64,000 bases of DNA from an uncultured Oscillospiraceae bacterium (GCA_944386055.1 CALWZP010000008.1:28671-92670), one strand, 5' to 3'; counted from the first letter of the stretch, positions 11,842 to 27,679 are shown. Numbers and translations: made by a program. Notes: generated by a model not told the origin, from the letters alone.

Positions 11842-11870
11842 TTGACAAGAGGGCGGCCCCATGCTATAAT
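11842..11870 (+). promoter_or_regulatory. Consensus sigma-70 promoter for the tRNA pair (-35 TTGACA 11842-47, 17-nt spacer, -10 TATAAT 11865-70)
   Basis: Exact consensus hexamers with the optimal spacer, about 40 nt upstream of tRNA-Leu. Confidence 0.7.
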
Positions 11871-11910
11871 ACATAGGCACTCAAAAGAGGAGACCGGTCC
11901 GCAACCTCCT

Positions 11911-11997
11911 GCCGGAGTGGCGGAATTGGCAGACGCCCGGGACTTAAAATCCCGTGGGAGCGATCCCGTGCCGGTTCGATCCCGGTCTCCGGCACCA
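11911..11997 (+). tRNA. tRNA-Leu (anticodon TAA), type II with a long variable arm and encoded CCA
   Basis: Hand-folded: acceptor GCCGGAG/CTCCGGC, anticodon stem CGGGA/TCCCG, loop CTTAAAA, long variable arm, T-loop TTCGATC. Confidence 0.9.
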
Positions 11998-12002
11998 CAT
12001 AT

Positions 12003-12078
<76 letters not shown>

Positions 12079-12122
12079 GAAACCCGTCTGATTTCGCAGA
12101 AAATCAGACGGGTTTTCTTTTT
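12079..12122 (+). terminator. Rho-independent terminator after the tRNA pair
   Basis: Stem GAAACCCGTCTGATTT / AAATCAGACGGGTTTTC followed by TTTTT. Confidence 0.85.
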
Positions 12123-12316
12123 GCTGAATGATGAAGGATTCAGACCGGACCTGAGGAATTGCTGATTGCCCCAATACCTGAAATACTGGGTTATGGGCGA
12201 GGCAGCCCCCTCGCCCGTTTTAACAGTTTGAGGGAATTCAGAGAATCGCCGTCTAAAAGGGAACATCAGGTATATGATGCTGATGGGTGTATGAAAAATG
12301 GTACAAAGGAAAATGC

Positions 12317-12355
12317 AAAATCGCCATGCAGCCTCTGCGGTTGCATGGCGATTTT
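12317..12355. terminator. Bidirectional rho-independent terminator (serves the LysR gene on the minus strand)
   Basis: Perfect 14-bp stem AAAATCGCCATGCA / TGCATGGCGATTTT with T-runs available on both strands. Confidence 0.75.
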
Positions 12356-12381
12356 GATTTTCTAAAAAGGTCTGGAGGACA

Positions 12382-13272
12382 TTAGGAGTCCGGATAAAGT
12401 TCCTGAGCCATCCTTACGAATTCCAATACAGACGCTTTTGCGTTGTCCCGGTGCCAGCCCAACGCAAGTTCAATAAATGCGGTAGAACCTGCGATGGGAA
12501 TTACCCGAATTTCTTCCGGCCAGACGGCCAGATTCATGTGGGAGGGAAGGATGGTAAAACCGAGCCCCGCCTGGACTGCGGCAAAGATGGTGGCAGCCTG
12601 TGGATAGTAGATTTTCTGGTTGGACTCAAGACCATGCTGAGCCAGGATATCCAAGATCTTGGGAAACAAAAACGGCGCCGCGGAATTGCTTTCCATAATA
12701 AGCGGAAAACCCTTTAAACCGGACAGATCCTGGGGGTCTACCAATGAGGTGTATTTCTGATGGATATAAACGGCATAGCGATCCGGACGGATAGGAGTGG
12801 TGTCCAACATATCAAAGGAGCGCAGGAGCGGAGCGACAGAGAAGTAAAGATCACATGCATTCTGATTGATCATTCCCACCTGCCGCCCGCCGTTTCCGCT
12901 GTCCATACGAATATGGATGTTAGGATACTGCTGATGATAGATGGAGACATACTCGGTCATAACCGTTTCAGCGCCGCCAGTGGAGGAGATGTCCAGAAAT
13001 CCGATGGCCCCACGGCTGATGTCATTCATCCGGCTTTCTGCTTCCATCATCTGGTTTAAAATGTTGACAGCATAATTGTAAAACTCTGACCCGGCAAAAG
13101 TCAGGGTAACGCTATGCTTTGTCCGGTGAAACAGCTGGACGCCCAGTTCGGCCTCCAGCTTGGCGATTTGGTTGGTGAGAGCGGGTTGGGAGATAAAGTA
13201 TTGTTTGGCGACCCGGGAGAAATTCAACGCCTGGGTCAGCGAGACGAAGTAAGTCAACTGGTTCTTGTCCAA
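12382..13272 (-). CDS. LysR family transcriptional regulator, divergent from the Mo-hydroxylase operon
   Basis: The HTH reads QLTYFVSLTQALNFSRVAKQYFISQPALTNQIAKLEAELGVQLF. The ORF extends to 13299, but GGGAGGTG followed 5 nt later by a TTG at 13272 gives the canonical MDKNQL.YF N-terminus. Confidence 0.85.
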   Translation of the reverse strand: MDKNQLTYFVSLTQALNFSRVAKQYFISQPALTNQIAKLEAELGVQLFHRTKHSVTLTFAGSEFYNYAVNILNQMMEAESRMNDISRGAIGFLDISSTGGAETVMTEYVSIYHQQYPNIHIRMDSGNGGRQVGMINQNACDLYFSVAPLLRSFDMLDTTPIRPDRYAVYIHQKYTSLVDPQDLSGLKGFPLIMESNSAAPFLFPKILDILAQHGLESNQKIYYPQAATIFAAVQAGLGFTILPSHMNLAVWPEEIRVIPIAGSTAFIELALGWHRDNAKASVLEFVRMAQELYPDS

Positions 13273-13678
13273 GAGGGCACCTCCCTTGCCCAGAGGCATA
13301 GTACGACAGTATACAAAGATAGGATTCGCCGAAACATCAACAATAGCAAGATTTATTTTGTCACAGCCGCCTCTCCGCCGATGGTGTCAACGGGAGCCGG
13401 TGCAGCCTGCAATACTGGCACCGGACATTTGTCCTGAAAGTACCTGCGGAACACCATGTAATGGTTCCGCTTTGCAGAGCTATTATTAATATTATACCAT
13501 GTTTGAGAAAGAAAAGACAACCCTGCTTGTGAAAAGAGCGATAGAAAAGCCTGCTATTTTTGATTTGTTTTGGTTATAAGGACTAAGAATTTTTGAAATT
13601 CCAATTCCCAATGTACTGTGGTATCGTTATTTATGTAACAAAGACTGCAGATCACAATTTTGACAGAAGGTGGAATTT

Positions 13679-16276
13679 ATGCCGACTTTTACGCTGAATG
13701 GAGCGGTCTGCTCTACGACAAAAAGCAAAAAGCTTTTGAAATTTCTGCGGGATGACCTGCATCTGACCAGCGTGAAGAACGCCTGCGGTGAGGGAGCGTG
13801 CGGCAGCTGCACTGTGCTGATGGATGGAAAGCCAGTGCGTAGCTGCATTCAGACCACGGACCGGGTGGATGGGCACAGTATCATCACCTGCGAGGGGTTG
13901 TCCCAGCGGGAGAAGGAGGTCTATTCCTATGCTTTTGCCGAGGCAGGAGCCGTGCAGTGCGGCTTCTGTATTCCAGGGATGGTGCTGGCGGCGAAAGCGC
14001 TTTTGGACAGAAAGCCGGATCCCTCGATTCAGGAGATCAAACAGGCCATACGGGGGAATATCTGCAGATGTACCGGGTATGTGAAAATTGAACAGGCGAT
14101 CCTGCTGGCGGCCAGACTTTTCCGCAGTGGCGAGCAGGTTCCGCACAGAGAATTTCTGGGGGGCCTGGGAGAGCGGATGCATCGGGTGGATGCCAGAGAC
14201 AAGGTGCTGGGGACGGCCAAGTTTGCGGACGACCTCTATCTGGACGGGATGCTGTTTGGAAGCGCTCTGCGCAGCAAATACCCCAGGGCGCGAGTGCTGT
14301 CCATCGACACATCGGAGGCCCGGTCCATGCCGGGGATTGCCGGCGTGCTGACCGCGGAGGATATCCCAGGAGCGCGCAAGATTGGATATATTGTCCCTGA
14401 CTGGGATGTGCTGGTCCCAGTGGGGGAGACGACGCATTTTCTGGGAGACGCCATCGCTCTTGTGGTGGGAGAGAACGAGGAGGTGGTAGAGCAGGCCAAG
14501 CAGAAAATCCGGGTGGAGTATGAGGAACTGCCGGCGATCTTCTCCTTTCAGGAGTCCATGCGGGGGGATATTCAAGTTCATGAGGACCGTCCCAACCTGA
14601 TGTGTGAACGGCACATCCTCCGGGGTGACGCGGATAAGGCCATCCGGGAGAGCAAGTATGTGGTGACCACCAAGTACAAGACCCCCTATAACGAACATGC
14701 CTTTATGGAGCCGGAGTGCGCTGTGGCAGAGCCGGAGGGAGAGGAGGGCGTACACCTCTACTGTGGGGACCAGGGAATCTATGAGTCCCGCAAGAAATGC
14801 TCCGCCATGCTGGGTATTCCAGAGGAGAAATTTCATGTTACTGCTATGATGGTTGGCGGTGCATTTGGAGCAAAAAATGACATGGTGGTGCAGCACCATG
14901 CTGCACTGGCGGCCTGGTGTCTTAAGCGCCCGGTAAAGGTCCGCCTGACCCGGCAGGAAAGTCTGGAGATTCACCCAAAGCGTCCGCCCTTGGAGATGGA
15001 ATTTACCACTGCTTGCGACGAAAACGGCTATCTTACCGCGACCAAGGCTGTGGTGCTCCGGGATAACGGGGCATATGCCTCCGCCGGCATCCCGGTGCTG
15101 GAGAGGGCGTGTGTACTTGGAACCGGACCTTATCACTATGACAATGTGGATATCCTGGGTCAGGCTTGGTATTCCAACAATGTGCCCGGTGGAGCATTCC
15201 GCGGCTTCAGCGTACCGCAGACCGCCTTTTGCACGGAGTGCAATCTGAACAAGCTGGCCAAGCTGGTGGGCATCTCCCCCTTTGAGATCCGATACCGCAA
15301 CGCCATCCGCCCGGGACAGGCCATGCCAAATGGGCAGATCATGGGTGAGGACTGCGCGTTGGTGGAAACTCTGGATGCCGTGCGCGCCGATTACGAGGCG
15401 CATCCCGATGCGGGGATCGCCTGTGGCTTCAAAAATAGCGGGACTGGCACTGGGCTGACCGACACCGGGCGTTGTCGATTGGTAGTGAAGGATGGCTTGA
15501 TCCATATATACAGCGGAGCTGCTTGCCTGGGTCAGGGCATGGGGACTGTGGAGACGCAGATGGTGTGCGAAGTGACCGGTGTCAGGCCGGAGCAGACCCT
15601 GTTCTGCACTCCGGACACCGACACCTCGCCGGATTCGGGGATGGCCATTGCCTCTCGCCATACCGTGATCACGGGAGAGGCAGTCTGTCTTGCCAGCAGA
15701 AAACTGAAACAGGCCATGGAGACAGTAAATGGAGACCTGGGTGCCCTGGAGGGGCAGGAGTTTCTGGGGGAATTCAGTCCTCCCACTGACCCCATGGATT
15801 CTACAAAGAAGAATCCGGTCTCCCATGTGACCTACTCCTTTGCAACCATGATGGTGCTGCTGGATGAGCACAACATGGTAGAGCGGGTGATTACCGCAAC
15901 AGATGTGGGGCGCCCAGTGAACCCAACCAATATTGAGGGACAGCTGGAGGGCGGCGTGACCATGGCCCTGGGCTTTGCATTGATGGAAAAGTTTGAGGTA
16001 GACCATGGAAAGGTACTCACCCGCTACGGAACACTGGGGCTGCCCCGGGCCGACCAGATTCCGGAAATCGAGGTGCGAATTGTGAACCGGGGAGCAGATG
16101 GCCCGGCAATGGGCGCCAAGGGATGCGGGGAGATATCCACCATCCCGGTCGCACCGGCGCTGCAGTTGGCCTATTATAACCGCACCGGCGTATTCCAGAC
16201 GGAACTGCCCCTGAAGACCCCATATTGGAGGCACAGAGGGGGCAGTACAGCAAAACCACAGGCCAAGAAAGAATAA
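13679..16276 (+). CDS. Fused [2Fe-2S] + molybdopterin-binding hydroxylase of the xanthine dehydrogenase/aldehyde oxidase family (XdhD-like; candidate selenium-dependent molybdenum hydroxylase)
   Basis: The N-terminus carries CGEGACGSCTV, QCGFCIPGM and NICRCTGY (two 2Fe-2S clusters). This is followed by Mo-hydroxylase a/b-hammerhead and MoCo-binding domains (GGAFG.K, GQG..T). The ATG at 13679 follows GAAGGTGG. Context is yqeB/yqeC/selD. Confidence 0.85.
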   Translation: MPTFTLNGAVCSTTKSKKLLKFLRDDLHLTSVKNACGEGACGSCTVLMDGKPVRSCIQTTDRVDGHSIITCEGLSQREKEVYSYAFAEAGAVQCGFCIPGMVLAAKALLDRKPDPSIQEIKQAIRGNICRCTGYVKIEQAILLAARLFRSGEQVPHREFLGGLGERMHRVDARDKVLGTAKFADDLYLDGMLFGSALRSKYPRARVLSIDTSEARSMPGIAGVLTAEDIPGARKIGYIVPDWDVLVPVGETTHFLGDAIALVVGENEEVVEQAKQKIRVEYEELPAIFSFQESMRGDIQVHEDRPNLMCERHILRGDADKAIRESKYVVTTKYKTPYNEHAFMEPECAVAEPEGEEGVHLYCGDQGIYESRKKCSAMLGIPEEKFHVTAMMVGGAFGAKNDMVVQHHAALAAWCLKRPVKVRLTRQESLEIHPKRPPLEMEFTTACDENGYLTATKAVVLRDNGAYASAGIPVLERACVLGTGPYHYDNVDILGQAWYSNNVPGGAFRGFSVPQTAFCTECNLNKLAKLVGISPFEIRYRNAIRPGQAMPNGQIMGEDCALVETLDAVRADYEAHPDAGIACGFKNSGTGTGLTDTGRCRLVVKDGLIHIYSGAACLGQGMGTVETQMVCEVTGVRPEQTLFCTPDTDTSPDSGMAIASRHTVITGEAVCLASRKLKQAMETVNGDLGALEGQEFLGEFSPPTDPMDSTKKNPVSHVTYSFATMMVLLDEHNMVERVITATDVGRPVNPTNIEGQLEGGVTMALGFALMEKFEVDHGKVLTRYGTLGLPRADQIPEIEVRIVNRGADGPAMGAKGCGEISTIPVAPALQLAYYNRTGVFQTELPLKTPYWRHRGGSTAKPQAKKE

Positions 16277-16319
16277 TAGAAAGTGCACAGAACAAACAAA
16301 ACTTAAGGAGGAAAGAACG

Positions 16320-17384
16320 ATGAAAAAGCTGATGACTGCACTGCTGACCATGGCCATGTTAACGGCGCTTGTACTGACCGGATGTGGCGGAGAGGAGCAA
16401 GCCGGCGGGGACACTCCGGAGGATACCGTCTATACCCTCCGGATTGGCACAGGAACTGGCGGACGAGACAAACAGGTCGCATGGATGGAAGAGTTTGAGA
16501 CTCAGCTGGAGGCAGCCACGGAGGGGCGCATTGATGTGCAGTGCTATCCGTCCGGCTCCATCGGCACCATGGCCGAGATGGTCCAGGGTGTTGTGGACGG
16601 CTCTCTGGATGCGGGCTGCTTCCCCACCGCGTACTGGTCCACCATTTTCCCCGCTGCGGCCTGTACAGAACTGCCCAACCTGTTTCCGGGCGGCAGTGAA
16701 CAGCTGTGGAACATCCTGATGACTCAGGACACCAAACTGGAGGAGGAGTACATCGCTCATGGAGTGATTCCGGGGACTTGGTTGATGGTCCCTGAGCGTA
16801 CCATCATCTCCAGCACCAAAATCGAGAGCATGGAGGATCTCCAGGGCAAGGTGATCTGGTGCACACCCAGTGACATGCTGCTCAAGGAGATTGAAATGCT
16901 GGGGGCTGTGTCCTCTGCCATTAATGTGGGAGAACTGGCTCCTTCTCTGCAGAACGGGACAGTGGACGGCGCAGCCTCAGAAATCACGCTCTATTATTCC
17001 CAGTCGCTGCAGACTGCAGGCGGCAACTATCTGCTGGAGGCTCCTGGTGATGCTTTTATCTCGATCTTTGCCATCAGTCAGCATTGGTGGGACCAAGTTC
17101 CAGAGGACCTGAGAGAGATTGTGCTGGAGGTTGCCAACGACACAGCCACAAACTTTGAGGTGGAGTATGTCCAGAACCAGACAGCGGAGGCCTATGAGGA
17201 GATGCAGGCTGCCGGCATGGAGGTGGTAATTCCCAGCGAGGAGTTCCAGGCAGACATGGATGCCGCTCTGGCGGGGCTTGCTGATTGGTACTTGGAAACC
17301 TACCCGGAAGCTACCGAGGTCTACAACGATATGGTGGACCGCGTTGCGGCAGATGAAGCCGACAACACGCAGGGTGAGAACTGA
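16320..17384 (+). CDS. TRAP transporter substrate-binding subunit (DctP family), lipoprotein
   Basis: It has a lipobox (LVLTGC) and sits directly upstream of the DctQ/DctM-type genes. Size and layout fit the DctP family. Confidence 0.8.
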   Translation: MKKLMTALLTMAMLTALVLTGCGGEEQAGGDTPEDTVYTLRIGTGTGGRDKQVAWMEEFETQLEAATEGRIDVQCYPSGSIGTMAEMVQGVVDGSLDAGCFPTAYWSTIFPAAACTELPNLFPGGSEQLWNILMTQDTKLEEEYIAHGVIPGTWLMVPERTIISSTKIESMEDLQGKVIWCTPSDMLLKEIEMLGAVSSAINVGELAPSLQNGTVDGAASEITLYYSQSLQTAGGNYLLEAPGDAFISIFAISQHWWDQVPEDLREIVLEVANDTATNFEVEYVQNQTAEAYEEMQAAGMEVVIPSEEFQADMDAALAGLADWYLETYPEATEVYNDMVDRVAADEADNTQGEN

Positions 17385-17461
17385 GAGGAGGTTCTCGCCT
17401 GAATATTGGCCGAAGGGGGCGGAGCGCCCGCCTCTTCGGAAGCTGAAGGGAAGGAGTGCCT

Positions 17462-17950
17462 ATGAAAGCCTGTCGTGACACGGTCAAAAAATTGATGGAT
17501 GTCCTGTTTGCAGTGGCTGCAATCCTCTATGGCGCGGGCACTGTGCTGGCGGTGGGGAACGCCGTCTGCCGTAAATTTTTGGACATTGGAATTGCCTGGG
17601 GAGATGAGCTGACTACCTATCTTATTGTAGTGGCGTTTTTCTTAACCATTCCCTATCTGGAGCTTCACAACGGATCTCTGTGTATTGGTCTGCTGGATAA
17701 CTTGATCAAGAATAAGACTGTGGCCCGAATATTGTATGTTATTCGGGGGTTATTGGTGGTATCCCTGAGCATCATCATTGTGCGGTATGGCCTTGTGGCT
17801 ATCGATTCCGCCATTGCATCTGATCTGAGGACCTTCACTCTGCGGTGGCCAAAGGCAATCTTTTACGCAATCTCGGTTGCCGGTTTTGCCCTGAGCGTTG
17901 TCTCCTGGATCACGATCATCCTACTGAACAAGGGGGAGAAGATGGAATGA
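17462..17950 (+). CDS. TRAP transporter small permease (DctQ family)
   Basis: A hydrophobic protein of about 160 aa with 4 predicted TM spans. The ATG at 17462 follows GGGAAGGAG, and the stop overlaps the dctM start (ATGA). Confidence 0.8.
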   Translation: MKACRDTVKKLMDVLFAVAAILYGAGTVLAVGNAVCRKFLDIGIAWGDELTTYLIVVAFFLTIPYLELHNGSLCIGLLDNLIKNKTVARILYVIRGLLVVSLSIIIVRYGLVAIDSAIASDLRTFTLRWPKAIFYAISVAGFALSVVSWITIILLNKGEKME

Positions 17951-19218
17951 ATATTGCCCATATCATCGTGGCATTTGTCATCCTGCTGGGTTTGATGCTG
18001 CTGAACTTCCCCATCTATACTGCGATCCTGAGTTCTGGCCTTTATCTGATGGTCTTTGTAAACCACATGCCCCTTCAGAGTATCTTCACCTCCATGTTTG
18101 AAGGGGTCACCAACAGCAGCCTGATGGCGATCCCATTCTTTGTTTTGGCTGGGTGCTTTATCTCCTCCGGGCAATTGGGGAAACGGCTAATGGATTGCTT
18201 CTCGACCCTGTTGAGGGGGGTGCGGGGCGGGATGCCCATCGCATGCCTGGCGTCCAACGCCTTGTTCGGCGCCATCTCCGGGTCCCCCCCCGCGGCGACT
18301 GCGGTGTTCTCCAAAATTATCCACGGGCCCATTGCCCGGGAGGAGAACGACAAGATGGCCACGGGATTGGTGGTCTCCGCTGCGGGACTTTCCTCCATTA
18401 TTCCGCCCAGCGTGACCATGATTATCTACGGCGTGGCCACCGAGACTTCCATTAGCACAATGTTTATCGCGGGAATTCTGCCCGGCCTGCTGATTGTGGC
18501 AATCATTGGAGTCTACCTGATCTTCGCCAGCAGGAGAAGGGCCGGCGAGGAGAACAAGGTGGATTGGAAAGAGGTCGGCAGTGCCTGGATCCGGGGCATT
18601 CCGGTGTTGATTCTGCCGGTGGCCGTCTTGGGCGGTATCTATGGCGGCTTTGTTACTCCGACAGAGGCCGGCGCGCTGTCTGCCATTTACTGCTGCGCCG
18701 CCAGCCTGCTTATGCGAGACATCCGTCCCCAAGATGTCCTCCGTGTCCTGAAGGAGGGCCTGCACACTGTGGGACAGGTGTTTATCCTGATCGCCTCCTC
18801 CGCCTTCTTCGCACGGGCCCTGACCGTCAGTCAGTTCCCTCAGTGGCTGACCAGCTACTTTGAGGACTATGGAAAGATCCAGTTCTTGCTGCTGCTGAAC
18901 ATCCTGCTTTTGGTTGTGGGCTGCTTTTTTGACACCAGCGCCGCCATCCTGATTCTGGCGCCCATGCTGCTGCCGCCCGCTCTGGCCCTTGGAATTGACC
19001 AGATCCACCTGGGGATCATCTTTGTGGTAAATCTGGTGATCGGTATGTTTACACCGCCTTTCGGTCTGAATATCTTTGTGGCGCAGAGTGTGCTGGGATA
19101 CGACATGAAGTACATCTCCAAATGCCTGATCCCCTATATCCTGCTCTACATTGTGGCGGTACTGATCATTACTTTTGTGGAGCCCATCTCTACCTTCCTG
19201 CCCGGCCTGCTGGCATGA
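17947..19218 (+). CDS. TRAP transporter large permease (DctM family)
   Basis: The ORF was trimmed to MNIAHIIVAFVILLG.... It is a polytopic protein of about 423 aa with a typical DctM pattern (GIPVLILPV..LGGIY.G..TPTEA). Confidence 0.85.
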   Translation: MNIAHIIVAFVILLGLMLLNFPIYTAILSSGLYLMVFVNHMPLQSIFTSMFEGVTNSSLMAIPFFVLAGCFISSGQLGKRLMDCFSTLLRGVRGGMPIACLASNALFGAISGSPPAATAVFSKIIHGPIAREENDKMATGLVVSAAGLSSIIPPSVTMIIYGVATETSISTMFIAGILPGLLIVAIIGVYLIFASRRRAGEENKVDWKEVGSAWIRGIPVLILPVAVLGGIYGGFVTPTEAGALSAIYCCAASLLMRDIRPQDVLRVLKEGLHTVGQVFILIASSAFFARALTVSQFPQWLTSYFEDYGKIQFLLLLNILLLVVGCFFDTSAAILILAPMLLPPALALGIDQIHLGIIFVVNLVIGMFTPPFGLNIFVAQSVLGYDMKYISKCLIPYILLYIVAVLIITFVEPISTFLPGLLA

Positions 19219-19243
19219 TAATCTTTCCTTTACCAAAGCGCAC

Positions 19244-19282
19244 AAATACAAAGCCTTTCCCACGCGGAAAGGCTCTGTATTT
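19244..19282 (+). terminator. Hairpin after dctM (weak terminator or processing site)
   Basis: 17-bp stem with one mismatch (AAATACAAAGCCTTTCC / GGAAAGGCTCTGTATTT). The trailing T-run is only short. Confidence 0.4.
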
Positions 19283-19314
19283 GGCAATGGTTATTCTTTG
19301 AAAAAGATAATGGG

Positions 19315-20049
19315 GTGAATGAGGTGACACTGCTTCAGGCGCTGGCAATTCCGGCGGGACATGGAGGAACTGCACTGGTGGGCGGCGGGGGAAAAACAAC
19401 ACTGATGCGGCTGCTGGGGAAGGAACTGGGAGATGCGGGGAAGCGCACGGTGCTTACTACAACCACCGCGATTCTACCGCCGGAAGGGATCCCCCTGGTT
19501 ACAGACGGATGGCAGCTGCGCAACGCGCTGCGCATAGATCGGGAGGTCTGTATGGGACGCACCGGGAAGGACGGCAAGGTACACAACCCCGGCACTGCGC
19601 TTCTGGAGGAGGCTTGTCTATTGGCGGACCGATTGCTCATCGAGGCAGACGGCGCTCGGCATATGCCAATCAAGGCACCTGGCAGCTTTGAACCGGTGAT
19701 TCCAGCTTGGGCAGACAGTGTGGTGGCGGTGGCGGGCTTGAGCGCGCTGGGGGAGACGCTCGGAGCCGCGTGTTTTCGAAGCGCGTTGGCCAGTCATATG
19801 CTGGGCGTCGGGCTGGAGGAACCACTGACCCCGGCGCTGCTGGCCCGACTGCTTACAAGTCCGGCGGGACAGCGTAAGCGTATCCCGCCCAAGGCGGGCT
19901 TTTGTATCCTGCTCAACCAGGCGGACGACATGGAGCGGGTGTGGGGTGGAATCGAAACAGCCCATTGGATCAAAAAATATCTTCCGCATTGCCGTGTGGT
20001 CATTGCCTCACTCCACAGCGGGGAGAGGATCAAAAATATTTTTGCATAG
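19315..20049 (+). CDS. yqeC: Selenium cofactor biosynthesis protein YqeC family
   Basis: It has the P-loop-like VGGGGKTTLM and the VLTTTTAILPP motif characteristic of YqeC, with yqeB and selD downstream. The start (GTG 19315) is uncertain. Confidence 0.75.
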   Translation: MNEVTLLQALAIPAGHGGTALVGGGGKTTLMRLLGKELGDAGKRTVLTTTTAILPPEGIPLVTDGWQLRNALRIDREVCMGRTGKDGKVHNPGTALLEEACLLADRLLIEADGARHMPIKAPGSFEPVIPAWADSVVAVAGLSALGETLGAACFRSALASHMLGVGLEEPLTPALLARLLTSPAGQRKRIPPKAGFCILLNQADDMERVWGGIETAHWIKKYLPHCRVVIASLHSGERIKNIFA

Positions 20050-20062
20050 AGGGTGCTGGAAT

Positions 20063-20866
20063 ATGCTGGTTTTGATCAAAGGAGCGGGAGACCTGTCATC
20101 TGGAATTGCATGCCGACTGTACCGCAGCGGGTTTCAGGTGGTGATGACAGAGACGGCACGGCCTACTACGGTGCGCTGCACAGTGGCTTTTTCAAGGGCA
20201 GTATACCGGAAGGAGACCCAAGTAGAGGATATCCCCGGACAACTGGCGGTGAGTACAGAGGAGTGCCGAAGGCTCGTTGAAGCCGGCGTGGTGGCGGTTG
20301 CGGTGGATCCGGAGTGTCAGTTGCTGTCCCAGCTGCACCCTGATGCGCTGGTGGATGCCATCATTGCCAAGAGAAATACAGGAACCCGAATAGACGATGC
20401 CCCTGTTGTGATAGGAGTAGGGCCAGGATTCACCGCGGGGGTGGATTGCCATGCCGCAGTGGAGACCCAGCGGGGCCATGACCTGGGCCGGGTATTATAC
20501 AAAGGGAGCCCCACCCCTGATACCGGGATCCCTGGGGAGATTGGAGGGTACACCACCCAGCGTGTGCTCCGGGCAGAGGTGGATGGAATATTCATGGCAC
20601 GGGCAGCTATCGGCGACAGCGTCCGGGCGGGACAGGAAGTGGGGCGAATTGGGACATTGCCTGTGCGCGCCCAGATTAGCGGTGTGCTGCGGGGGCTGTT
20701 GCCCGACCAGACACCGGTATACACAGGAATGAAAGTGGGGGATGTGGATCCCAGATGCCGGGTGGAGCACTGCTATACGGTTTCAGATAAGGCGAACGCA
20801 GTGGGCGGCGGCGTATTGGAGGCGATACTCAATGGCATGGAGAAGAGGAGACGGAATGGACTGTGA
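20063..20866 (+). CDS. yqeB: Selenium-dependent molybdenum hydroxylase system protein, YqeB/EF2563 family
   Basis: The ORF was trimmed to MLVLIKGAGDLSSGIACRLYRSGFQVVMTE..RPTTVRCTVAFS.AVY. Size, motif and neighbourhood match the short YqeB family. Confidence 0.75.
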   Translation: MLVLIKGAGDLSSGIACRLYRSGFQVVMTETARPTTVRCTVAFSRAVYRKETQVEDIPGQLAVSTEECRRLVEAGVVAVAVDPECQLLSQLHPDALVDAIIAKRNTGTRIDDAPVVIGVGPGFTAGVDCHAAVETQRGHDLGRVLYKGSPTPDTGIPGEIGGYTTQRVLRAEVDGIFMARAAIGDSVRAGQEVGRIGTLPVRAQISGVLRGLLPDQTPVYTGMKVGDVDPRCRVEHCYTVSDKANAVGGGVLEAILNGMEKRRRNGL

Positions 20867-21896
20867 AATCAGAATGACAAAGCTGGCACAGTGCGCCGGG
20901 TGCGGGGCGAAGGTGGGCGCGGGGATGCTGTCCGCGCTGCTGGAGGGACTTCCCGTGCCCTGCGATGAGAGACTTCTGGTAGGATACGATACCAGCGATG
21001 ATGCTTCTGTTTACCAGATATCAGAGGAATTGGCGTTGGTGCAGACAGTGGATTTTTTCCCGCCCATTGTAGATGACCCCTATTTATTTGGACAAATCGC
21101 CGCTGCCAACGCCATCAGCGATGTGTATGCCATGGGTGGCGAGCCGCGCCTCGCACTGAATATGATGTGCATGCCGAAAAAGCTCCCGGACCGGGCGGTA
21201 CGGGAGATCCTGCGGGGTGGCTACGAAAAAGCGGCTGAGGCGGGGGTGATGATCTCCGGCGGACACAGTATTCAGGACGAGGAGCCCAAGTACGGACTGG
21301 CAGTGACGGGCTTCGTCCATCCGCAGAGATATTTGCGCAACAATTCTGCCAGGGAGGGGGATGTGCTCATCCTGACAAAACCGCTGGGGATTGGGATTAT
21401 CACCACGGCGCACAAGGCGGGACTGGCGGACGAGGTGGTCTATGACATGGCAGTGAAACAGATGGCGCAGCTGAACCGGGACGCACGGGATGTAATGGTC
21501 CGCTATCCTGTGAATGCCTGCACAGATGTCACGGGCTTCTCTTTGCTGGGCCATACCTTGGAGATGACGGGGGAGGGCAGAGTGACTGCGGTTCTGAACA
21601 GTGAGGCAGTTCCTTTGCTGCCCGGGGTGCTGGAGCTGGCCCGTCTGGGACTGCTGCCGGAGGGAATGTATCGAAACCGACACTATGCTCAGCCCCATGT
21701 CAAAAGTGCCAACAGCGTGAGCCGAGAGAGGCTGGATGCATTCTACGACCCGCAGACCTCGGGAGGGCTGCTTATCGCAGTCCGGCCAGAAGCGGCATCT
21801 GCGCTGCTGAGCGAACTGAAGGACAAGATTCCATGCGCCGGAGCGATTGGCACTATGGAAGCAGCACGAGAAGACTGCGCTATATTTATCCGATAG
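20856..21896 (+). CDS. selD: Selenide, water dikinase (selenophosphate synthetase), Cys-type
   Basis: The N-terminal motif is TKLAQCAGCGAKVG, followed by an AIR-synthase-like fold (DDA.VY, DFF.P.VDDPY.FG.IAA.NA.SD..AMGG). The ATG at 20856 follows GAGGAG and overlaps the end of yqeB. Confidence 0.9.
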   Translation: MDCEIRMTKLAQCAGCGAKVGAGMLSALLEGLPVPCDERLLVGYDTSDDASVYQISEELALVQTVDFFPPIVDDPYLFGQIAAANAISDVYAMGGEPRLALNMMCMPKKLPDRAVREILRGGYEKAAEAGVMISGGHSIQDEEPKYGLAVTGFVHPQRYLRNNSAREGDVLILTKPLGIGIITTAHKAGLADEVVYDMAVKQMAQLNRDARDVMVRYPVNACTDVTGFSLLGHTLEMTGEGRVTAVLNSEAVPLLPGVLELARLGLLPEGMYRNRHYAQPHVKSANSVSRERLDAFYDPQTSGGLLIAVRPEAASALLSELKDKIPCAGAIGTMEAAREDCAIFIR

Positions 21897-21899
21897 AGA

Positions 21900-23045
21900 T
21901 TATGCCAGCGCCAGGACGGCCGCTGCAGCGGCGCTTATATCCTCTTCGGAAGTAAACCAGCCCAGAGAGAAGCGAACGGTGCCCTGAGGGAAAGTCTCCA
22001 GAGAATGATGGGCCAATGGAGCACAGTGGAGGCCGCAACGCGTCAGGATGCCGTAGTTTTGTTCCAGTGCAGCGGCGACCTCACCGTTGTCCCGACGCAG
22101 AAAATCCACCGAGATGACACCTACGCGGTCTTCGGCGCGTTTGGGACCGGGGAGCCGGATATGAGGGCAGCCGTTCAGTGCGTTCAGGAATCTGGCGGTA
22201 AGGGCAATCTCATGGGAACGGAGGGCATCAAGTCCCACGGAGCGGACAAAGGACAGCGCGGCACCAAGACCGAGAATGCCAGGAAGATTGGAGGTACCGG
22301 CCTCGAAGCGGTCGGGGAGAGTGTCCGGCATCTCAGGAGAATCGGAGGCGCTGCCTGTTCCGCCGGTAATCAGGGGAGACAGCTGACGGGCAAAGCCGGG
22401 GGACAGGGCGATGCCGCCGATTCCTTGAGGACCCATCAGTCCCTTGTGCCCCGCGAAACAGATAGCATCCGCCCTCAGGGTGCCCAGGGATACCGGAATA
22501 TGACCCGCTGTCTGCGCGGCATCCACTGCAAAGGATACCCCTTGGGCTTGGCACAGTTCTCCCATGGCGGGAAGGTCCAGAATGGTACCGCTGACATTGG
22601 ATGCGTGGGTCATCATTACCAGCCGGGTCTCCGGGCGAAACAGGGACCGGGCCGCCGACAGGTCCAGGCGCCCAGCGCAGTCGCAGGGGACGACAGAAAA
22701 AGAGACGCCGCGCTTTTCCAGGTCAACCACAGTGCGGAAGACGGCGTTGTGCTCCATGCCGGAGATAATGACATGATCGCCTGGGCGCAGAGAGCCCCGG
22801 AGAATCAGATTGATGCTTTGAGTTGCGCCGGGGGTAAAGAGTATCCATTCACAGCCGGCACAGCCGAACAGATCTGCCAGTGCCTCCCGCACCGCCATTA
22901 CCTGCAGTTCAGATCGGATGGAGAGTATATGACTAGAGCGGTTGATATTACTGCTGCCATGCTCTAGACAGTCGCAGACCGCAGATGCGACGCCAGGAGC
23001 TTTGGGAAAGCTGCCGGCAGCTTGATCCAAATAGATCATCTCCAT
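21900..23045 (-). CDS. Class V aminotransferase: NifS/CsdA-like cysteine desulfurase or selenocysteine lyase
   Basis: It carries the PLP-lysine motif FAGHKGLMGPQGIG and the active-site loop RCGLHCAP. It is convergent with selD, and the two stop codons are separated by only 3 nt. Confidence 0.85.
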   Translation of the reverse strand: MEMIYLDQAAGSFPKAPGVASAVCDCLEHGSSNINRSSHILSIRSELQVMAVREALADLFGCAGCEWILFTPGATQSINLILRGSLRPGDHVIISGMEHNAVFRTVVDLEKRGVSFSVVPCDCAGRLDLSAARSLFRPETRLVMMTHASNVSGTILDLPAMGELCQAQGVSFAVDAAQTAGHIPVSLGTLRADAICFAGHKGLMGPQGIGGIALSPGFARQLSPLITGGTGSASDSPEMPDTLPDRFEAGTSNLPGILGLGAALSFVRSVGLDALRSHEIALTARFLNALNGCPHIRLPGPKRAEDRVGVISVDFLRRDNGEVAAALEQNYGILTRCGLHCAPLAHHSLETFPQGTVRFSLGWFTSEEDISAAAAAVLALA

Positions 23046-23175
23046 AAAACACCTCCGGCAAATCTGCGATGGTATTTGAGAAGCCCTGAATCAGAGTGTA
23101 CTTTATTTGAAATGCCAAGTCCCTGTATTCATGATACCACGATAAAAGCAGAAAAAACAGTGAGGAGAAGTGAAA

Positions 23176-24282
23176 ATGAGTGCGAAACGATATTTGCCCA
23201 TTTTGATCGCCGGAGCGCTGGTGGGTGCGGCAGCCCTGCTCCTGACCTTCATGGGAAATCCTGCCAATATGGGTTTTTGCATCGCCTGCTTTCTGCGGGA
23301 TACAGCGGGAGCCCTGGGCCTTCATTCCGCAGGGACTGTTCAATACGCCCGGCCGGAGATCATAGGCATCATTCTGGGCGCCAGCGCTGCGGCGCTGGTT
23401 ACAGGGGAGTTCAAGGGACGCGGCGGCTCCGCTCCTCTTACCCGCTTTATCCTGGGCTTTGCTATGATGGTGGGGTCACTGATGTTCTTGGGCTGTCCGC
23501 TGCGGATGGTTCTTCGCCTTGGGGGAGGAGACCTGAATGCCTTGGTGGGACTGGGGGGATTCACCTGTGGAATTCTGGTGGGAATCCTGGCGCTGCAGAA
23601 CGGCTTTACTCTGCGTCGCTCCTATGTGCTGACCCGTGTGGAGGGCGGGGTATTCCCTTTGATTACTGCGGCAGTGTTGGCCGTGCTGATCCTGGCCCCA
23701 GCGCTGCTCCGCTTCAGCAAGGAGGGGCCTGGGTCCATGCGGGCCCCAATCCTGCTGTCTCTGATCTTCGGCCTTTTGGTGGGTGTTCTGGCCCAGCGGA
23801 CCAGGCTGTGCACTGCAGGTGGGATCCGAGACGCTGTGCTGTTCCGGGACTTTTACCTGTTGCTGGGGCCGGTAGCTATCCTGGCGGTTACTGTAGTAGG
23901 GAACCTGGCCATAGGGAAGTTCAACCCTGGATTTGTGGGCCAACCGGTGGCCCATGCCGACGGAATATGGAACTTTATAGGAATGGCCTTGGTGGGATGG
24001 AGCGCAATTCTGCTGGGGGGGTGCCCACTGCGGCAGCTTATTCTGGCAGGGGAGGGCAACAGCGATTCCGCTGTGGCGGTGCTGGGGATGGTGGTGGGTG
24101 CGGCCTTCTGCCATAACTTCGGTCTGGCCTCTTCCGCAGAAGGGCCTACGGGCAATGGAAAAGCAGCGGTGGTTCTGTGCTTTATTGTGGTAGCGGCCAT
24201 CACACTTCTGAATATGGAGCATCTGGGAAAACGCAAGGCGGTTTCCACGCAGAAAGGAGAATTAAGAGATGGAAAAGATTGA
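23176..24282 (+). CDS. yedE: YedE/YeeE family putative selenium/sulfur-compound transporter
   Basis: A polytopic protein with the conserved N-terminal GNPANMGFCIACFLRD motif and an internal repeat. The ATG at 23176 lies 8 nt after GAGGAG. Confidence 0.8.
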   Translation: MSAKRYLPILIAGALVGAAALLLTFMGNPANMGFCIACFLRDTAGALGLHSAGTVQYARPEIIGIILGASAAALVTGEFKGRGGSAPLTRFILGFAMMVGSLMFLGCPLRMVLRLGGGDLNALVGLGGFTCGILVGILALQNGFTLRRSYVLTRVEGGVFPLITAAVLAVLILAPALLRFSKEGPGSMRAPILLSLIFGLLVGVLAQRTRLCTAGGIRDAVLFRDFYLLLGPVAILAVTVVGNLAIGKFNPGFVGQPVAHADGIWNFIGMALVGWSAILLGGCPLRQLILAGEGNSDSAVAVLGMVVGAAFCHNFGLASSAEGPTGNGKAAVVLCFIVVAAITLLNMEHLGKRKAVSTQKGELRDGKD

Positions 24283-24478
24283 TGCCAGAGGGCGGTCCTG
24301 CCCTGAGCCGGTCATCCTGACGCAGAGGCAGTTCCGCAGTACAGATAAATTTGAGGTGTTAGTGGATAACGCCTGTGCGGTGCAGAACATAACCCGTTTT
24401 GCGGAGAATAAAGGGGCGTCTGTCACGGTAACCGAGACCGGGGAGGATGAGTATACCATTTTGGTACAAAAGAAATGA
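24269..24478 (+). CDS. yedF: TusA/SirA-like sulfur(selenium)-carrier protein (short YedF-like)
   Basis: A 69-aa protein with the DARG..CPEPV motif. It overlaps the end of yedE. Confidence 0.75.
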   Translation: MEKIDARGRSCPEPVILTQRQFRSTDKFEVLVDNACAVQNITRFAENKGASVTVTETGEDEYTILVQKK

Positions 24479-24714
24479 AGGAACGGCTGGTGACCTTCCA
24501 TACCCACTTGGGAGCGGTGAAATTATACCGGGAGCTGAGCAGACAGAAATTTGCCGTCCGGATGATGCCGGTCCCGCGCGTGCTGAGTTCCAGCTGCGGG
24601 ACCTGCCTGCGGACAAGCTATGATGGCCCGGCGGAGGACTTGCTGACAGAGGATGTGCAGGGAGTCTATGAAGTGGAGGCGGATGGATACCGTCTGCTGA
24701 AGGGAGAGAATTGA
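24475..24714 (+). CDS. DUF3343-like small protein (putative Se/S carrier-like)
   Basis: A 79-aa protein with an ATGA overlap with yedF. Its pattern is F.TH.A.K.......K......P.P......CG.C. Confidence 0.55.
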   Translation: MKERLVTFHTHLGAVKLYRELSRQKFAVRMMPVPRVLSSSCGTCLRTSYDGPAEDLLTEDVQGVYEVEADGYRLLKGEN

Positions 24715-25722
24715 ATGGCGGGGGAGGACAAAGAGTCGGTACAGGAGCAGGCATGCGGTTGTGTGGTGCTGGCCTCCGGAAAGGGAACGCGGTTTGGCGG
24801 TGGAAAGCTACACGCACTTTTCCGCGGGAAGCCGCTGATCCAGTGGGCGCTGTCCGCTGTGCCGGCCGAACTGACTGACCGGACCGTCGTGGTTGTGGGG
24901 GATGAGACCATCCGCTCATTGGCGCGGAGACACGGCTTTCGCACAGTGGAGAACAATGCACCTGAACAGGGCATCAGCCACAGCATCCAGCTGGGGCTGG
25001 CTCCTTTGCAGGAGTGGTGTGGTCGGGTGCTGTTCCTCATGGCGGATCAGCCCATGCTGCGTACAGAGACCATTCGCAACGCCCTTCGTCTGTCCGAAGA
25101 AGCGACAGATAGGATTGTGGCATTAGCCTGGAACGGCAGAAGACGGAACCCATGTATCTTCCCAGCAAAATTTTTCCCGGAACTGATGTCCCTTACCGGG
25201 GACCAGGGTGGAAACGCAGTAGCAGCGCGGCATCCATCTCGCTTGCTGCTGATTGAAGCACCATGGGAAGAGACGGAGGACATTGACGACCAGGAGACCC
25301 TGGCCAGGCTGAGCGTTCAATCAGAACTGAGGATTGATCCGCTATATCCAGAGATTACTATGCGGTTGTATATGCAGAGCAAATGCTTTGGTCCAGGTAT
25401 CGCCGCGCTGCTGGAACGGGTCAGAGAACTGGGATCTCTGCGGGCCGCTGCGGCATCCATAGGTATGTCATATTCTAAGGCCTGGGGAGTCGTGCGCCGG
25501 TGTGAGAGGGCACTGGGGTGGCCTCTGCTGGTGCGCCAAACAGGGGGGCGAAACGGCGGCGGTGCCGTTCTGACGGCGGATGCCGGAGAACTGCTGCAGA
25601 TGTATCGGGAGTGCTGCCGAGAGTTGGATGACCTGGCGGAACGGCTGGTATTGGATAAGGCGAGGCGCTATTTTGCAAAGGAGAACAAAACCATATTGAG
25701 GGAGAGGGGGGGACGGACATGA
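24715..25722 (+). CDS. Fusion protein: MocA/MobA-like molybdenum-cofactor nucleotidyltransferase + ModE-N-like winged-helix domain
   Basis: N-terminal part: VVLASGKGTRFGG.K......GKPL plus MADQP. C-terminal part: GSLRAAAASIGMSYSKAWGVVRRCERALGWPLLVRQTGGRNGGGAVLT..G..LL, which closely parallels the ModE N-terminal HTH (SYKSAW....LV.R..GG..GGGA.LT). Confidence 0.75.
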   Translation: MAGEDKESVQEQACGCVVLASGKGTRFGGGKLHALFRGKPLIQWALSAVPAELTDRTVVVVGDETIRSLARRHGFRTVENNAPEQGISHSIQLGLAPLQEWCGRVLFLMADQPMLRTETIRNALRLSEEATDRIVALAWNGRRRNPCIFPAKFFPELMSLTGDQGGNAVAARHPSRLLLIEAPWEETEDIDDQETLARLSVQSELRIDPLYPEITMRLYMQSKCFGPGIAALLERVRELGSLRAAAASIGMSYSKAWGVVRRCERALGWPLLVRQTGGRNGGGAVLTADAGELLQMYRECCRELDDLAERLVLDKARRYFAKENKTILRERGGRT

Positions 25723-26651
25723 TGCGATTGAAATGGCGAGAGGCCTTGAGAAGGGCTGGAGCGGGAGATGCAGCTTCAGTCTCTTTTCCCATGGATGGAA
25801 AAGTTTATCAGAGAATATTTCGCCCAGAGACACGGCTGATTTTGTTGGGAGCGGGCCATGTGGCACAGGCTCTGTGCGGCTATGGGGCGGAGCTGGGGTT
25901 CCGCGTGAATGTAGTAGATGATCGGCCGGAATTTATTACACAGGAGCGGTTTCCCCAGGCGGCGCAATTGCTTTGCGGAAGCTATCCTGCGGTGATCCGA
26001 GATCTGAAGATAGGCACGCAGGACTTTGTGGCGGTGATGACTCGAGGCCACCGCTATGATACCCTGTGTGTTTGTGCCATCCTGGAGGGTGAATTGCCAA
26101 GCTATTTGGGAGTTATCGGCTCCCGGCACAAGGCGCAGGCGCTGCTGGAGCTGCTGGCGACGGAGGGATTTTCCAGGGAGACATTGGACAAGATCCATAC
26201 GCCCATCGGACTGGACATTGGAGCCTTGACTGTACAGGAGATCGCCGTATCCATTGTAGCGGAATTAATCCAGCACAGACGGAAGAAAACGCCCAGAGCC
26301 CATGGGGCCACTTTGCTGATAGAGGATGGACTGGACCCGGCGCTGGCAGTAGCGACCCAACAACAGGAGAAAAACTGGGTATTGGCGATGGTCTATGAGA
26401 CAACGGGTTCTACGCCGGCGAAGACTGGAGCCATGATGTTGGCAGATAGGACTGGAAACACAATTGGGACTGTCGGCGGCGGAAACGGAGAATATAGAGT
26501 GGTGCAGCAGGCACGCAGCATAGCTGGTACCGGTGACTGTATCAGCATGACTCTGGATTTGGACAACCCCTTGGCCGAGCCGGAGGGAATGGTTTGCGGA
26601 GGAACCATGAAAGTGATGTTGATAGATATGGGAGAACCGGAGGAAAGATAA
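25719..26651 (+). CDS. xdhC: XdhC/CoxI family molybdenum-hydroxylase maturation protein
   Basis: It has the Rossmann-like motif RLILLGAGHVAQAL plus VMTRGH..D and IGSR.K..., with an ATGA overlap with the upstream gene. Confidence 0.8.
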   Translation: MMRLKWREALRRAGAGDAASVSFPMDGKVYQRIFRPETRLILLGAGHVAQALCGYGAELGFRVNVVDDRPEFITQERFPQAAQLLCGSYPAVIRDLKIGTQDFVAVMTRGHRYDTLCVCAILEGELPSYLGVIGSRHKAQALLELLATEGFSRETLDKIHTPIGLDIGALTVQEIAVSIVAELIQHRRKKTPRAHGATLLIEDGLDPALAVATQQQEKNWVLAMVYETTGSTPAKTGAMMLADRTGNTIGTVGGGNGEYRVVQQARSIAGTGDCISMTLDLDNPLAEPEGMVCGGTMKVMLIDMGEPEER

Positions 26652-26749
26652 CTGCAAGGAAAGGCAGAAGAGGCGTGAGTTTGGCGGAAAGCCTGTAGAC
26701 TTTCCGATACTGCAGTGTGCTTGAAAGGGCCTTGAAGGGGAACACGCGT

Positions 26750-27679
26750 TTATATTTGATGGAGATCAGATGCCGGCAAGGGAAGTTTGTCCCCCCCGCC
26801 ATAGAGCTCCCGCAGCACGGCGAGGAACTCGGCGGCGGCGCTGTTGCCGCTGCGGGGATCCCAGCCCACGGCGTTGACGGTGAGAGCGTCGTCTCCGGGA
26901 ATGGGGAAGGAGCGGACATGCTCGGTGTTGATGCTCTTCCCCGCCGCGCCGGGGAAGAGGGTGAAGCCCATTCCAGCGTTGGTGAAGGCAGCCACCGCAC
27001 GCAGGTCGTTGCAGGCGATGATGTTCCCCGTGTCGAAGCCCCGAGCCCGGCAGATGGAGAACACCTGATCCACCAGGAAGGGCCCCTCGGACCGGGACTC
27101 GGTGATCAGAGGGAGGGGGGCGAGGGAGGTAAAGTCGTCCGGGTCCACCCGGCCGGCGAAGGTGTCCGGGACGAACAGATGAAAGCGGTCCTCATCGGTG
27201 ACCAGATAGGACAGGCTCTCGTTGGACTGAAGCAGGGTCTGGAAAGAGAAATAAAAGTCGTATTCCCCCTTGTTGATGGCGGACATCTGCACCATCCCGG
27301 TGGAGAACTCCAGATCGATCTGGACCTGGGGACAGCGGCGGCTGAACACCGCCAGCACCCGGTGGACCACATGGTCCAGGGTGCTGATGGCGGACAGGCG
27401 GATATGGCCTGTTTTTCCCAGCGCGATATTGCGTACCCGCCGCTTGGCGGAGGCGGTCATATCCAATACAGACAGGGCATAGCGGAAGAACTCCTCCCCT
27501 TCCCGGGTAAGAGCCACCTGGTGGCTGCTGCGCAGGAACAGCCTGGCTCCCAGTTCCTTTTCCAGCTCGGTGATGCGCCGGCTGATGGCGGGCTGGGTGA
27601 TATAGTGCAGCTTGGCCGCCTGAGTGAAGTTTAAAGTCTGCGCGACGGAGACAAAATAGCGGAGCTGGTCAAAATCCAT
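26750..27679 (-). CDS. LysR family transcriptional regulator
   Basis: The N-terminus is MDFDQLRYFVSVAQTLNFTQAAKLHYITQPAISRRITELEKELG. It is divergent from the enoate-reductase operon. Confidence 0.9.
   Translation of the reverse strand: MDFDQLRYFVSVAQTLNFTQAAKLHYITQPAISRRITELEKELGARLFLRSSHQVALTREGEEFFRYALSVLDMTASAKRRVRNIALGKTGHIRLSAISTLDHVVHRVLAVFSRRCPQVQIDLEFSTGMVQMSAINKGEYDFYFSFQTLLQSNESLSYLVTDEDRFHLFVPDTFAGRVDPDDFTSLAPLPLITESRSEGPFLVDQVFSICRARGFDTGNIIACNDLRAVAAFTNAGMGFTLFPGAAGKSINTEHVRSFPIPGDDALTVNAVGWDPRSGNSAAAEFLAVLRELYGGGDKLPLPASDLHQI

Follow-up and report, generated by a model that had tools for sequence, protein, structure and literature searches.

A selenium-cofactor gene block in an uncultured Oscillospiraceae bacterium, probably acquired as a cassette, whose TRAP-linked molybdenum hydroxylase probably acts on neither xanthine nor uric acid

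Selenium-dependent molybdenum hydroxylases (SDMHs) are the least understood biological use of selenium, with a handful of known activities. The gene set described from Enterococcus faecalis V583, EF2563-EF2570, holds an orphan selD, yqeB, yqeC, a YedF-like gene, the selenocysteine (Sec) lyase SclA/EF2568, ygfJ/mocA and the selenium-dependent xanthine dehydrogenase (XDH) EF2570 (PMC2276186). A 2025 preprint describes XdhAC as a selenium- and SelD-dependent 2,8-dioxopurine dehydrogenase (DOPDH) marked by A1078T/S relative to bovine xanthine oxidoreductase (XOR), and genetic work in Clostridioides difficile and Clostridium sporogenes shows that selenium-dependent purine use needs YqeB and SelD. 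The closest solved molybdenum (Mo) domain to that of the enzyme studied here belongs to another SDMH, the nicotinate dehydrogenase (NDH, PDB ID: 3HRD) of Eubacterium barkeri. Against these systems we set a block of genes at positions 12,382 to 26,651 of a 64,000-nucleotide stretch of DNA from an uncultured Oscillospiraceae bacterium (GCA_944386055.1 CALWZP010000008.1:28671-92670), the whole of which is called the window. The block encodes a known selenium-cofactor system in which the hydroxylase and its neighboring tripartite ATP-independent periplasmic (TRAP) transporter are rare variants, probably acting on a ring compound other than xanthine or uric acid.

We think it rather probable that the block is a self-contained, horizontally acquired SDMH cassette, and that its substrate is not xanthine or urate but some other N-heterocycle, probably a non-carboxylated one. 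The hydroxylase is a member of family TIGR03311 by hidden Markov model (HMM), and it lacks the marker residues and the gene context of the purine enzymes. A database search returns thousands of relatives, and where the source gives them a name it is "selenium-dependent xanthine dehydrogenase". In alignments with bovine XOR and with 120 relatives, and in the neighbor-joining tree made from them, a monophyletic group is formed by 16 sequences that share 63% identity or more with the window hydroxylase and have 34 clade-specific positions, which in the window enzyme include N403 (bovine XOR E802), A472 (L873), M658 (P1076) and I660 (A1078), as well as C819, which adjoins the catalytic E821. The residue at the E802 position is Asn in this subclade, except for His in two members; the 105 relatives outside it have Glu there in 105/105, Leu at the L873 position in 105/105, and Thr at the A1078 position in 104/105. 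The equivalents of XOR Arg880, Arg912, Phe914 and Glu1261 are kept family-wide, with R479, F513 and E821 conserved in the window enzyme. Both the purine-binding Glu and the DOPDH hallmark Thr/Ser are missing from it (Asn403 and Ile660), and within TIGR03311 it groups with a separate subclade that is linked to TRAP genes and has its substrate pocket remodelled.

The transporter next to it is unusual in a residue of its own. When the window binding protein is aligned with the 5 solved DctP-type binding proteins, Trp180 falls in a column that is Arg in 5/5 of them, equivalent to R147 of SiaP, the residue by which TRAP transporters select for carboxylates (PMC4646407). The window protein has no carboxylate-clamp Arg, and neither do its relatives: in a search of 5.8 billion proteins, the clamp position is Trp in 17/17 database relatives, at 44-99% identity, and the binding proteins encoded at the subclade loci L010, L014 and L095 are also of the Trp type. 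Hydroxylase and binding protein co-vary, Asn-type enzymes going with Trp-type binding proteins in 4/4 cases and His-type enzymes (L011 and L097) with Arg-type binding proteins in 2/2, a pattern that with numbers as small as 4 and 2 is suggestive. Within the library of papers searched, none joins selenium-dependent molybdenum hydroxylases with TRAP transporters. As a side observation on the same genes, a near-identical assembly (L004, 1604-4504, Logan SRR29999941) has both DctP and DctM broken, DctP into fragments of 105 and 221 aa and DctM to one of 287 aa, the result of either strain pseudogenisation or assembly errors.

The gene neighborhoods of the subclade also differ from those of its purine-type relatives. 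Of the 10 subclade loci examined, 6 (the window, L010, L011, L014, L095 and L097) have TRAP genes beside the hydroxylase, against 0 of about 80 loci whose enzymes have at most 59% identity, several of which carry ygfK, ssnA or ygeX. A scan of metagenome contigs by generic 2Fe-2S motifs gives mostly distant relatives, serving as a negative control for the TRAP linkage, and adds one subclade locus, L014. Within the 58-59% identity range, L013 has the order ygeX-ssnA-ygfK-xdhAC with Bmp ABC transporters, and L012 has the hydroxylase beside a three-subunit XDH. The 64-kb window has none of ygfK, ssnA, hyuA, ygeW, ygeX, ygeY, carbamate kinase, Bmp transporter or xanthine permease, and the other subclade loci have no purine-pathway genes save a possible ygeW-like ornithine transcarbamylase (OTCase) in L011. 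In L101 (3-6570; P0007), the subclade hydroxylase comes straight after an NDH-like split hydroxylase and straight before YqeB; the NDH-like enzyme consists of a flavin adenine dinucleotide (FAD)-subunit fragment and subunits of 344, 171 and 439 aa, its large subunit having Asn at the XOR E802 position (GGGFGEKN).

The open reading frames (ORFs) of the window at 12.3-27.7 kb were listed and then scanned with NCBIfam and Pfam. Paired numbers in the lines that follow, and later in the text, are score/curated cut-off in bits.

11911..12078, plus strand: tRNA-Leu(taa) and tRNA-Met(cat), by ARAGORN and Rfam; left edge of the stretch of low GC at third codon positions (GC3)
12382..13299, minus strand: LysR1 regulator, matched by LysR models, divergent from the hydroxylase operon
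13670 or 13679 (start)..16276, plus strand: hydroxylase, fused 2x[2Fe-2S]/molybdopterin, full-length match to TIGR03311 "Se_dep_XDH" (1197/830)
16320..17384, plus strand: DctP-type TRAP substrate-binding protein (NCBIfam/Pfam DctP)
17462..17950, plus strand: DctQ, TRAP small membrane subunit (Pfam DctQ, 53.7 bits)
17947..19218, plus strand: DctM, TRAP large membrane subunit (dctM TIGR00786, 335/268)
19315 or 19378 (start)..20049, plus strand: YqeC, accessory protein for the selenium cofactor (TIGR03172, 178/73; PF19842), with Walker-A motif GGGGKTT
20063..20866, plus strand: YqeB (TIGR03309, 354/220), of the family for maturation of the selenium-dependent Mo cofactor
20856..21896, plus strand: SelD, selenophosphate synthetase (TIGR00476, 399/125)
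21900..23045, minus strand, convergent with selD: class-V aminotransferase, cysteine desulfurase/Sec-lyase-like pyridoxal phosphate (PLP) protein (TIGR01977, 395/377)
23176..24282, plus strand: YedE-family putative selenium transporter (TIGR04112, 489/200), with two GCP motifs
24269..24478, plus strand: TusA-like ORF (PF01206), with CPEP motif
24475..24714, plus strand: DUF3343/Se_S_carrier ORF (PF11823)
24715..25722, plus strand: MocA-like cytidylyltransferase with winged helix-turn-helix (HTH) (TIGR03310, 133/186, below cut-off; NTP_transf_3, 118 bits, above cut-off)
25719..26651, plus strand: XdhC-family Mo-cofactor insertion chaperone (NCBIfam/Pfam)
26750..27679, minus strand: second LysR regulator, host-like in GC3, divergent from the reductase gene
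27901..29832, plus strand: FadH/2-enoate-reductase/old yellow enzyme (OYE)-type reductase with flavin mononucleotide, iron-sulfur (FeS) and FAD
29878..31065, plus strand: amidohydrolase, prolidase/imidazolonepropionase-like

The original prediction had taken this block for a complete SDMH gene set, and all the genes it named are found by the ORF listing and the scans where it placed them, in its order and on its strands. The HMMs for the hydroxylase, YqeC and YqeB all score above their cut-offs. SelD, YqeB, YqeC and the XDH-family hydroxylase, all of them features of the selenium-cofactor trait (Haft & Self 2008; Zhang 2008), are indeed co-localized with the selenium-supply genes and the Mo-cofactor-tailoring genes, and the core is the same as that of EF2563-EF2570 (PMC2276186), so that the main claim is right, yet it was already established. 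The labels of the genes need refining in that YedF is split over two ORFs, the MocA-like protein has an extra HTH and the domains of XdhC are swapped; what had gone unnoticed is that the block is a compositional island and that a reductase and an amidohydrolase (27901-31065) adjoin it.

The hydroxylase has the Pfam domains Fer2_2, Ald_Xan_dh_C, MoCoBD_1 and MoCoBD_2 and no FAD domain, and three Cys clusters are readable in its translation. Its closest solved structures are the Desulfovibrio gigas aldehyde oxidoreductase (full length, 344 bits) and the large subunit of E. barkeri NDH (Mo domain, 272 bits over about 400 residues). An antisense ORF of 920 aa at 13652-16414 was rejected as a shadow ORF of the hydroxylase gene by homology and by codon-position GC. 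All three TRAP components, DctP, DctQ and DctM, are encoded according to NCBIfam and Pfam. The genes yqeC, yqeB and selD are mutually adjacent, with the hydroxylase 3 kb upstream of yqeC on the same strand, and the 19378 start of YqeC is that of the called gene in L001. SelD is of the Cys type, with the N-terminus QCAGCGAK and no in-frame TGA. The PLP protein, which has GHK and GLHCAP motifs in its translation, belongs by score to the EF2568 family TIGR01977 and misses the exception-level model NF040779 for SclA (377/525).

The YedF function is divided between the TusA-like and DUF3343 ORFs, which overlap by ATGA. Both halves are kept, and the single-protein model TIGR03527 is missed at 56/110 bits, matching over profile positions 1-68 only; from these sequences we expect that the function is probably retained. 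The MocA-like protein ends in a ModE/LysR-type HTH (ModE_repress at residues 227-306; Pfam HTH_1). This fusion is seen in the window and in L010 (21096-22097) only, DOPDH-type loci having an unfused MocA, and in L072 the HTH part is an ORF separate from MocA. XdhC proteins canonically have XdhC_CoxI before XdhC_C. In the window protein the order is swapped, the Rossmann XdhC_C domain coming first at 40-183 and XdhC_CoxI second at 215-272. LysR1 is 78% identical to its counterpart in the syntenic locus L010. It is one of three LysR-family genes inside 20 kb (12382-13299, 26750-27679 and 31162-32070), each divergent from a catabolic unit, and against the model NF040786 for "selenium metabolism-associated LysR" the three window proteins score only 106-121 bits against a cut-off of 250, with LysR1 at 108.

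Composition sets the block apart from the rest of the window. The 14 block genes (12382-26651) have a mean GC3 of 0.651, ranging from 0.59 to 0.74, and 34 flanking genes have a mean of 0.862, ranging from 0.75 to 0.93, so that no block gene reaches the value of any flanking gene (U=0, p=7e-8). Low GC3 sets in about 300 bp past the two tRNA genes and ends short of the LysR gene at 26750. The flanks consist of housekeeping genes, including nicotinate phosphoribosyltransferase, a dipicolinate synthase subunit, RlmI, a WalRK-like two-component pair and MltG. In a related Oscillospiraceae metagenome-assembled genome (MAG; L010) the gene content and order of the block recur, the proteins being 58-91% identical in amino acids, and there the block has an unrelated upstream flank, a tRNA-Thr 1.6 kb away, and host-like GC. 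Deviant composition and variable context, both used to recognize genomic islands, are present here, and tRNA genes adjoin. Horizontal transfer of the selenium-cofactor trait has been reported as rare (PMC5029168); here the complete trait, with selD and selenium uptake included, looks like one transferred unit.

The left border of the island is a 300-bp AT-rich gap that contains a perfect hairpin of 18 pairs at 12316-12356, just past the lysR1 stop codon; another perfect hairpin, of 16 pairs at 12079-12116, forms the terminator after tRNA-Met. A promoter and terminator scan gives counts not clearly above those of shuffled sequence (promoters 13 against 7.4±2.6, terminators 17 against 15.7), and it is used for these two hairpins and the one at 19252-19274 only. 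To the immediate left of the tRNA pair and the island is the nicotinate phosphoribosyltransferase gene (10366-11808), and its position beside a nicotinate-dehydrogenase-like hydroxylase is probably a coincidence, since its GC3 is host-like.

How far selD can be called orphan depends on the rest of the genome. In the window, ARAGORN and Rfam give only tRNA-Leu and tRNA-Met and no tRNA-Sec, the Rfam search at gathering threshold returns those two tRNAs and no Mo-cofactor riboswitch, and none of selA, selB and selU is among the roughly 50 ORFs scanned, as the original prediction had read from the same 64 kb. The genome might nonetheless also decode selenocysteine, make selenouridine, or both, with the selenium-supply genes serving more than one use. 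We regard this as a possibility of some substance, if the less probable one, since selenium traits significantly co-occur in bacteria and the Sec trait is found in many Clostridia (PMC5029168), and since the 64 kb examined come from a contig of at least 201 kb: 21 kb of the window match, at 100% identity, the human-associated metagenome contig ENA ERZ24773253 NODE_89 (201 kb). The closest genome records are uncultured Oscillospiraceae MAGs, and a search of genome contigs with the hydroxylase finds two Oscillospiraceae MAG contigs only. Against a selD with several duties stand the absence of selA, selB, selU and tRNA-Sec from the window, and the fact that selD is itself part of the acquired cassette, with yqeB on one side and the lyase on the other, just as at the E. 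faecalis orphan-selD locus. Such a selD would touch the word orphan only and is compatible with the cassette as we read it.

Going by what is known of the families, the acquired cassette would work as follows. A selenium species would be taken up by YedE and carried by the TusA-like and DUF3343 proteins, and the EF2568-type PLP lyase might also free selenide from selenocysteine; SelD would convert selenide and ATP into selenophosphate. The MocA-like domain would make the molybdopterin cytosine dinucleotide form of the Mo cofactor, and XdhC would hold that cofactor and insert it, with YqeB, perhaps together with the P-loop protein YqeC, placing a labile selenium ligand on Mo from selenophosphate. 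The FAD-less 2x[2Fe-2S]/Mo enzyme would then hydroxylate, or in reverse reduce, a heteroaromatic substrate imported by the TRAP transporter, and the product might be handed to the FadH/OYE-type reductase and the amidohydrolase, a hydroxylate-reduce-hydrolyse logic proposed by analogy with nicotinate fermentation and with the pathway of 2,8-dioxopurine. The analyses themselves show the gene content, the family memberships, the compositional island, the subclade and the Trp in the binding protein; the substrate class, the direction of the reaction, the selenium content and the coupling into a pathway we infer.

The case for the last two steps comes from other subclade loci. L094 has the order FadH/OYE-type reductase, amidohydrolase, hydroxylase, YqeC, and L096 has reductase, fused hydroxylase, YqeC. 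In the window, the reductase/amidohydrolase pair lies immediately right of the island, the reductase one gene away from it, and the reductase is 46-48% identical to its L094 and L096 homologs and the amidohydrolase 41% to its L094 homolog. The best solved relatives of the reductase are 2-naphthoyl-CoA reductase 6QKG and FadH 1PS9, and it is the probable second step of the pathway. The amidohydrolase, the probable ring-opening step, was considered as an enamidase and rejected as one, its best solved relatives being prolidase, Arg-carboxypeptidase and imidazolonepropionase-like proteins. Nicotinate is disfavored as the substrate because the amidohydrolase is not enamidase-like, and because the binding protein has no carboxylate clamp. 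The linkage of amidohydrolase to hydroxylase is facultative, not obligatory.

Several side observations belong with these neighborhoods. The L096 hydroxylase (2390-6253, P0009, 1287 aa) continues at its C-terminal end into fused 4Fe-4S ferredoxin and Fe-hydrogenase large-subunit-like domains, a hint that the FAD-less enzymes may exchange electrons with a low-potential partner of the ferredoxin or hydrogenase type. Directly after the TRAP genes of L095 there is a Cyclase-family gene (6746-7390, PF04199, kynurenine formamidase/isatin hydrolase type), a possible hint of an indole- or formamide-type metabolite. Further right in the window, at 32269-34234, are paired ORFs of 512 and 141 aa without Pfam or NCBIfam match, and similar-sized unannotated pairs flank the LysR/OYE/amidohydrolase module of an Oscillospiraceae MAG contig (L099, 990-2975 and 10755-12817).

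More tentatively, the Asn/Ile, TRAP-linked subclade might constitute a fifth SDMH class, after nicotinate, xanthine, purine and 2,8-dioxopurine, through which gut Oscillospiraceae would begin the anaerobic degradation, by an undescribed route, of a non-carboxylated N-heterocycle, with import by a Trp-type TRAP transporter followed by an OYE-type reductase and an amidohydrolase, and with the whole trait moving as one cassette.

A number of points weigh against a transferred cassette with a non-purine substrate. No integrase or transposase is found, with all ORFs of 12.1-26.7 kb accounted for, and a comparison of 11850-12450 with 26500-27900 for att-type direct or inverted repeats finds one shared 12-mer only, which is at chance level; because neither integrase nor att-like repeats were found, the island is argued from composition and context alone. 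The window reductase and amidohydrolase are host-like in GC3, unlike the cassette, and have only 41-48% identity to those of L094 and L096, and in three long contigs (L098-L100) amidohydrolase homologs occur without a nearby hydroxylase, so that the coupling may be loose or coincidental in this genome. For the protein and its subclade alike, selenium content, substrate and reaction direction are deduced from sequence, and deletion of YqeC in C. difficile gave no phenotype (PMC11448449). The match to a "Se-dependent xanthine dehydrogenase" model well above its cut-off, with 57-61% identity to purine-cluster enzymes, and the OTCase-like gene upstream in the subclade locus L011, which could be purine-pathway ygeW, also count here, and a purine-like substrate could be bound in a different manner.

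These last points lead to the alternative that this is an ordinary purine system, a selenium-dependent XDH or a DOPDH/XdhAC for which the TRAP transporter imports urate or xanthine while other purine genes lie elsewhere in the genome. The name carried by the family and its relatives, a fused FAD-less architecture as in DOPDH, the conserved equivalents of R880, R912, F914 and E1261, and the L011 neighbor all agree with it, and a Trp-lined binding protein free of the carboxylate clamp could fit a purine. We nevertheless hold it to be unlikely, since the enzyme has Asn at the Glu802 equivalent and Ile at the DOPDH hallmark A1078 position, with 32 more clade-specific positions, since purine-pathway, Bmp transporter and xanthine permease genes are absent from the 64 kb, and since among about 80 DOPDH-type loci purine genes are adjacent in several and TRAP genes in none. 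The implicit purine or xanthine reading of the original prediction is weakened accordingly, there being no Glu802 equivalent or Thr, no purine-pathway neighbors, and an unusual TRAP transporter. A sulfur-type, selenium-independent aldehyde oxidoreductase like D. gigas MOP, with yqeB, yqeC and selD its neighbors for some other reason, is very improbable: the D. gigas enzyme is the best full-length solved relative and has the same fused FAD-less architecture, and NF045668 gives 478 bits, but that is far under its cut-off of 1100 where TIGR03311 is above its own, the Mo domain is nearer to the selenium-dependent NDH, and YqeB or YqeC directly adjoins the subclade hydroxylases in L094, L096 and L101.

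On the acquired-cassette reading, what the locus offers is a question of substrate. The maturation problem gains nothing new from it, the YqeB, YqeC and SelD core being that of E. faecalis and the organism being uncultured, and the suggestion that it would make a useful model system loses force for the latter reason and because deletions of selD, yqeB and yqeC already exist in C. difficile (PMC11448449). What is of interest is a distinct subclade that annotation pipelines label "xanthine dehydrogenase" despite its changed purine-binding residues and different neighbors, a rare family of TRAP binding proteins without the Arg thought to limit TRAP transporters to carboxylates, and the whole selenium-cofactor trait, selD and selenium uptake included, as one transferable 14.5-kb block. 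The substrate is an interesting lead: its identification would extend what is known of the chemistry of gut anaerobes, and with the substrate in hand the locus would become a compact operon from which the selenium-Mo cofactor could be reconstituted in another host.

Compared with E. faecalis V583, the window shares a clustered SelD, YqeB, YqeC, EF2568-type lyase, TusA/DUF3343 carrier, MocA and fused FeS/Mo TIGR03311 hydroxylase. The E. faecalis locus runs on into ygeW, ygeX, ygeY, hyuA, ygfK, ssnA, carbamate kinase and xanthine permease, none of which the window has, and the window in its turn adds a TRAP transporter, YedE, XdhC, a split YedF and a MocA-HTH fusion, and has a different hydroxylase pocket. 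Listed as differences there are six: the purine pathway is absent, the pocket is remodelled, the TRAP transporter is without the clamp Arg, YedF is split, MocA carries the HTH, and XdhC is swapped. With the DOPDH/XdhAC of C. sporogenes and of the gut uric-acid gene cluster, the window enzyme shares its family and FAD-less fused architecture, and in both the Mo domain is closest to nicotinate dehydrogenase, DOPDH being SelD-dependent. The DOPDH type has Glu (E802) and Thr/Ser (A1078) and lies beside ygfK, ssnA and ygeX, whereas the window enzyme has Asn and Ile, 32 more clade-specific residues, and TRAP genes beside it. DctP-type TRAP systems such as SiaPQM have the same three components, with the clamp Arg replaced in the window by Trp180, as it is in 17/17 relatives.

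The remaining comparison is with nicotinate fermentation, where a hydroxylase is followed by 6-hydroxynicotinate reductase and enamidase, a succession of hydroxylase, ring reductase and amidohydrolase whose logic is similar to that of the window neighborhood; an NDH-like split hydroxylase is found beside one subclade locus, L101. NDH itself has four subunits, including a FAD subunit and a split Mo subunit, whereas the window enzyme is one FAD-less chain, and the window amidohydrolase is prolidase/imidazolonepropionase-like, not nearest to enamidase, and its reductase is of the FadH/OYE type. The TRAP binding protein, being without a carboxylate clamp, argues against nicotinate itself as the substrate.

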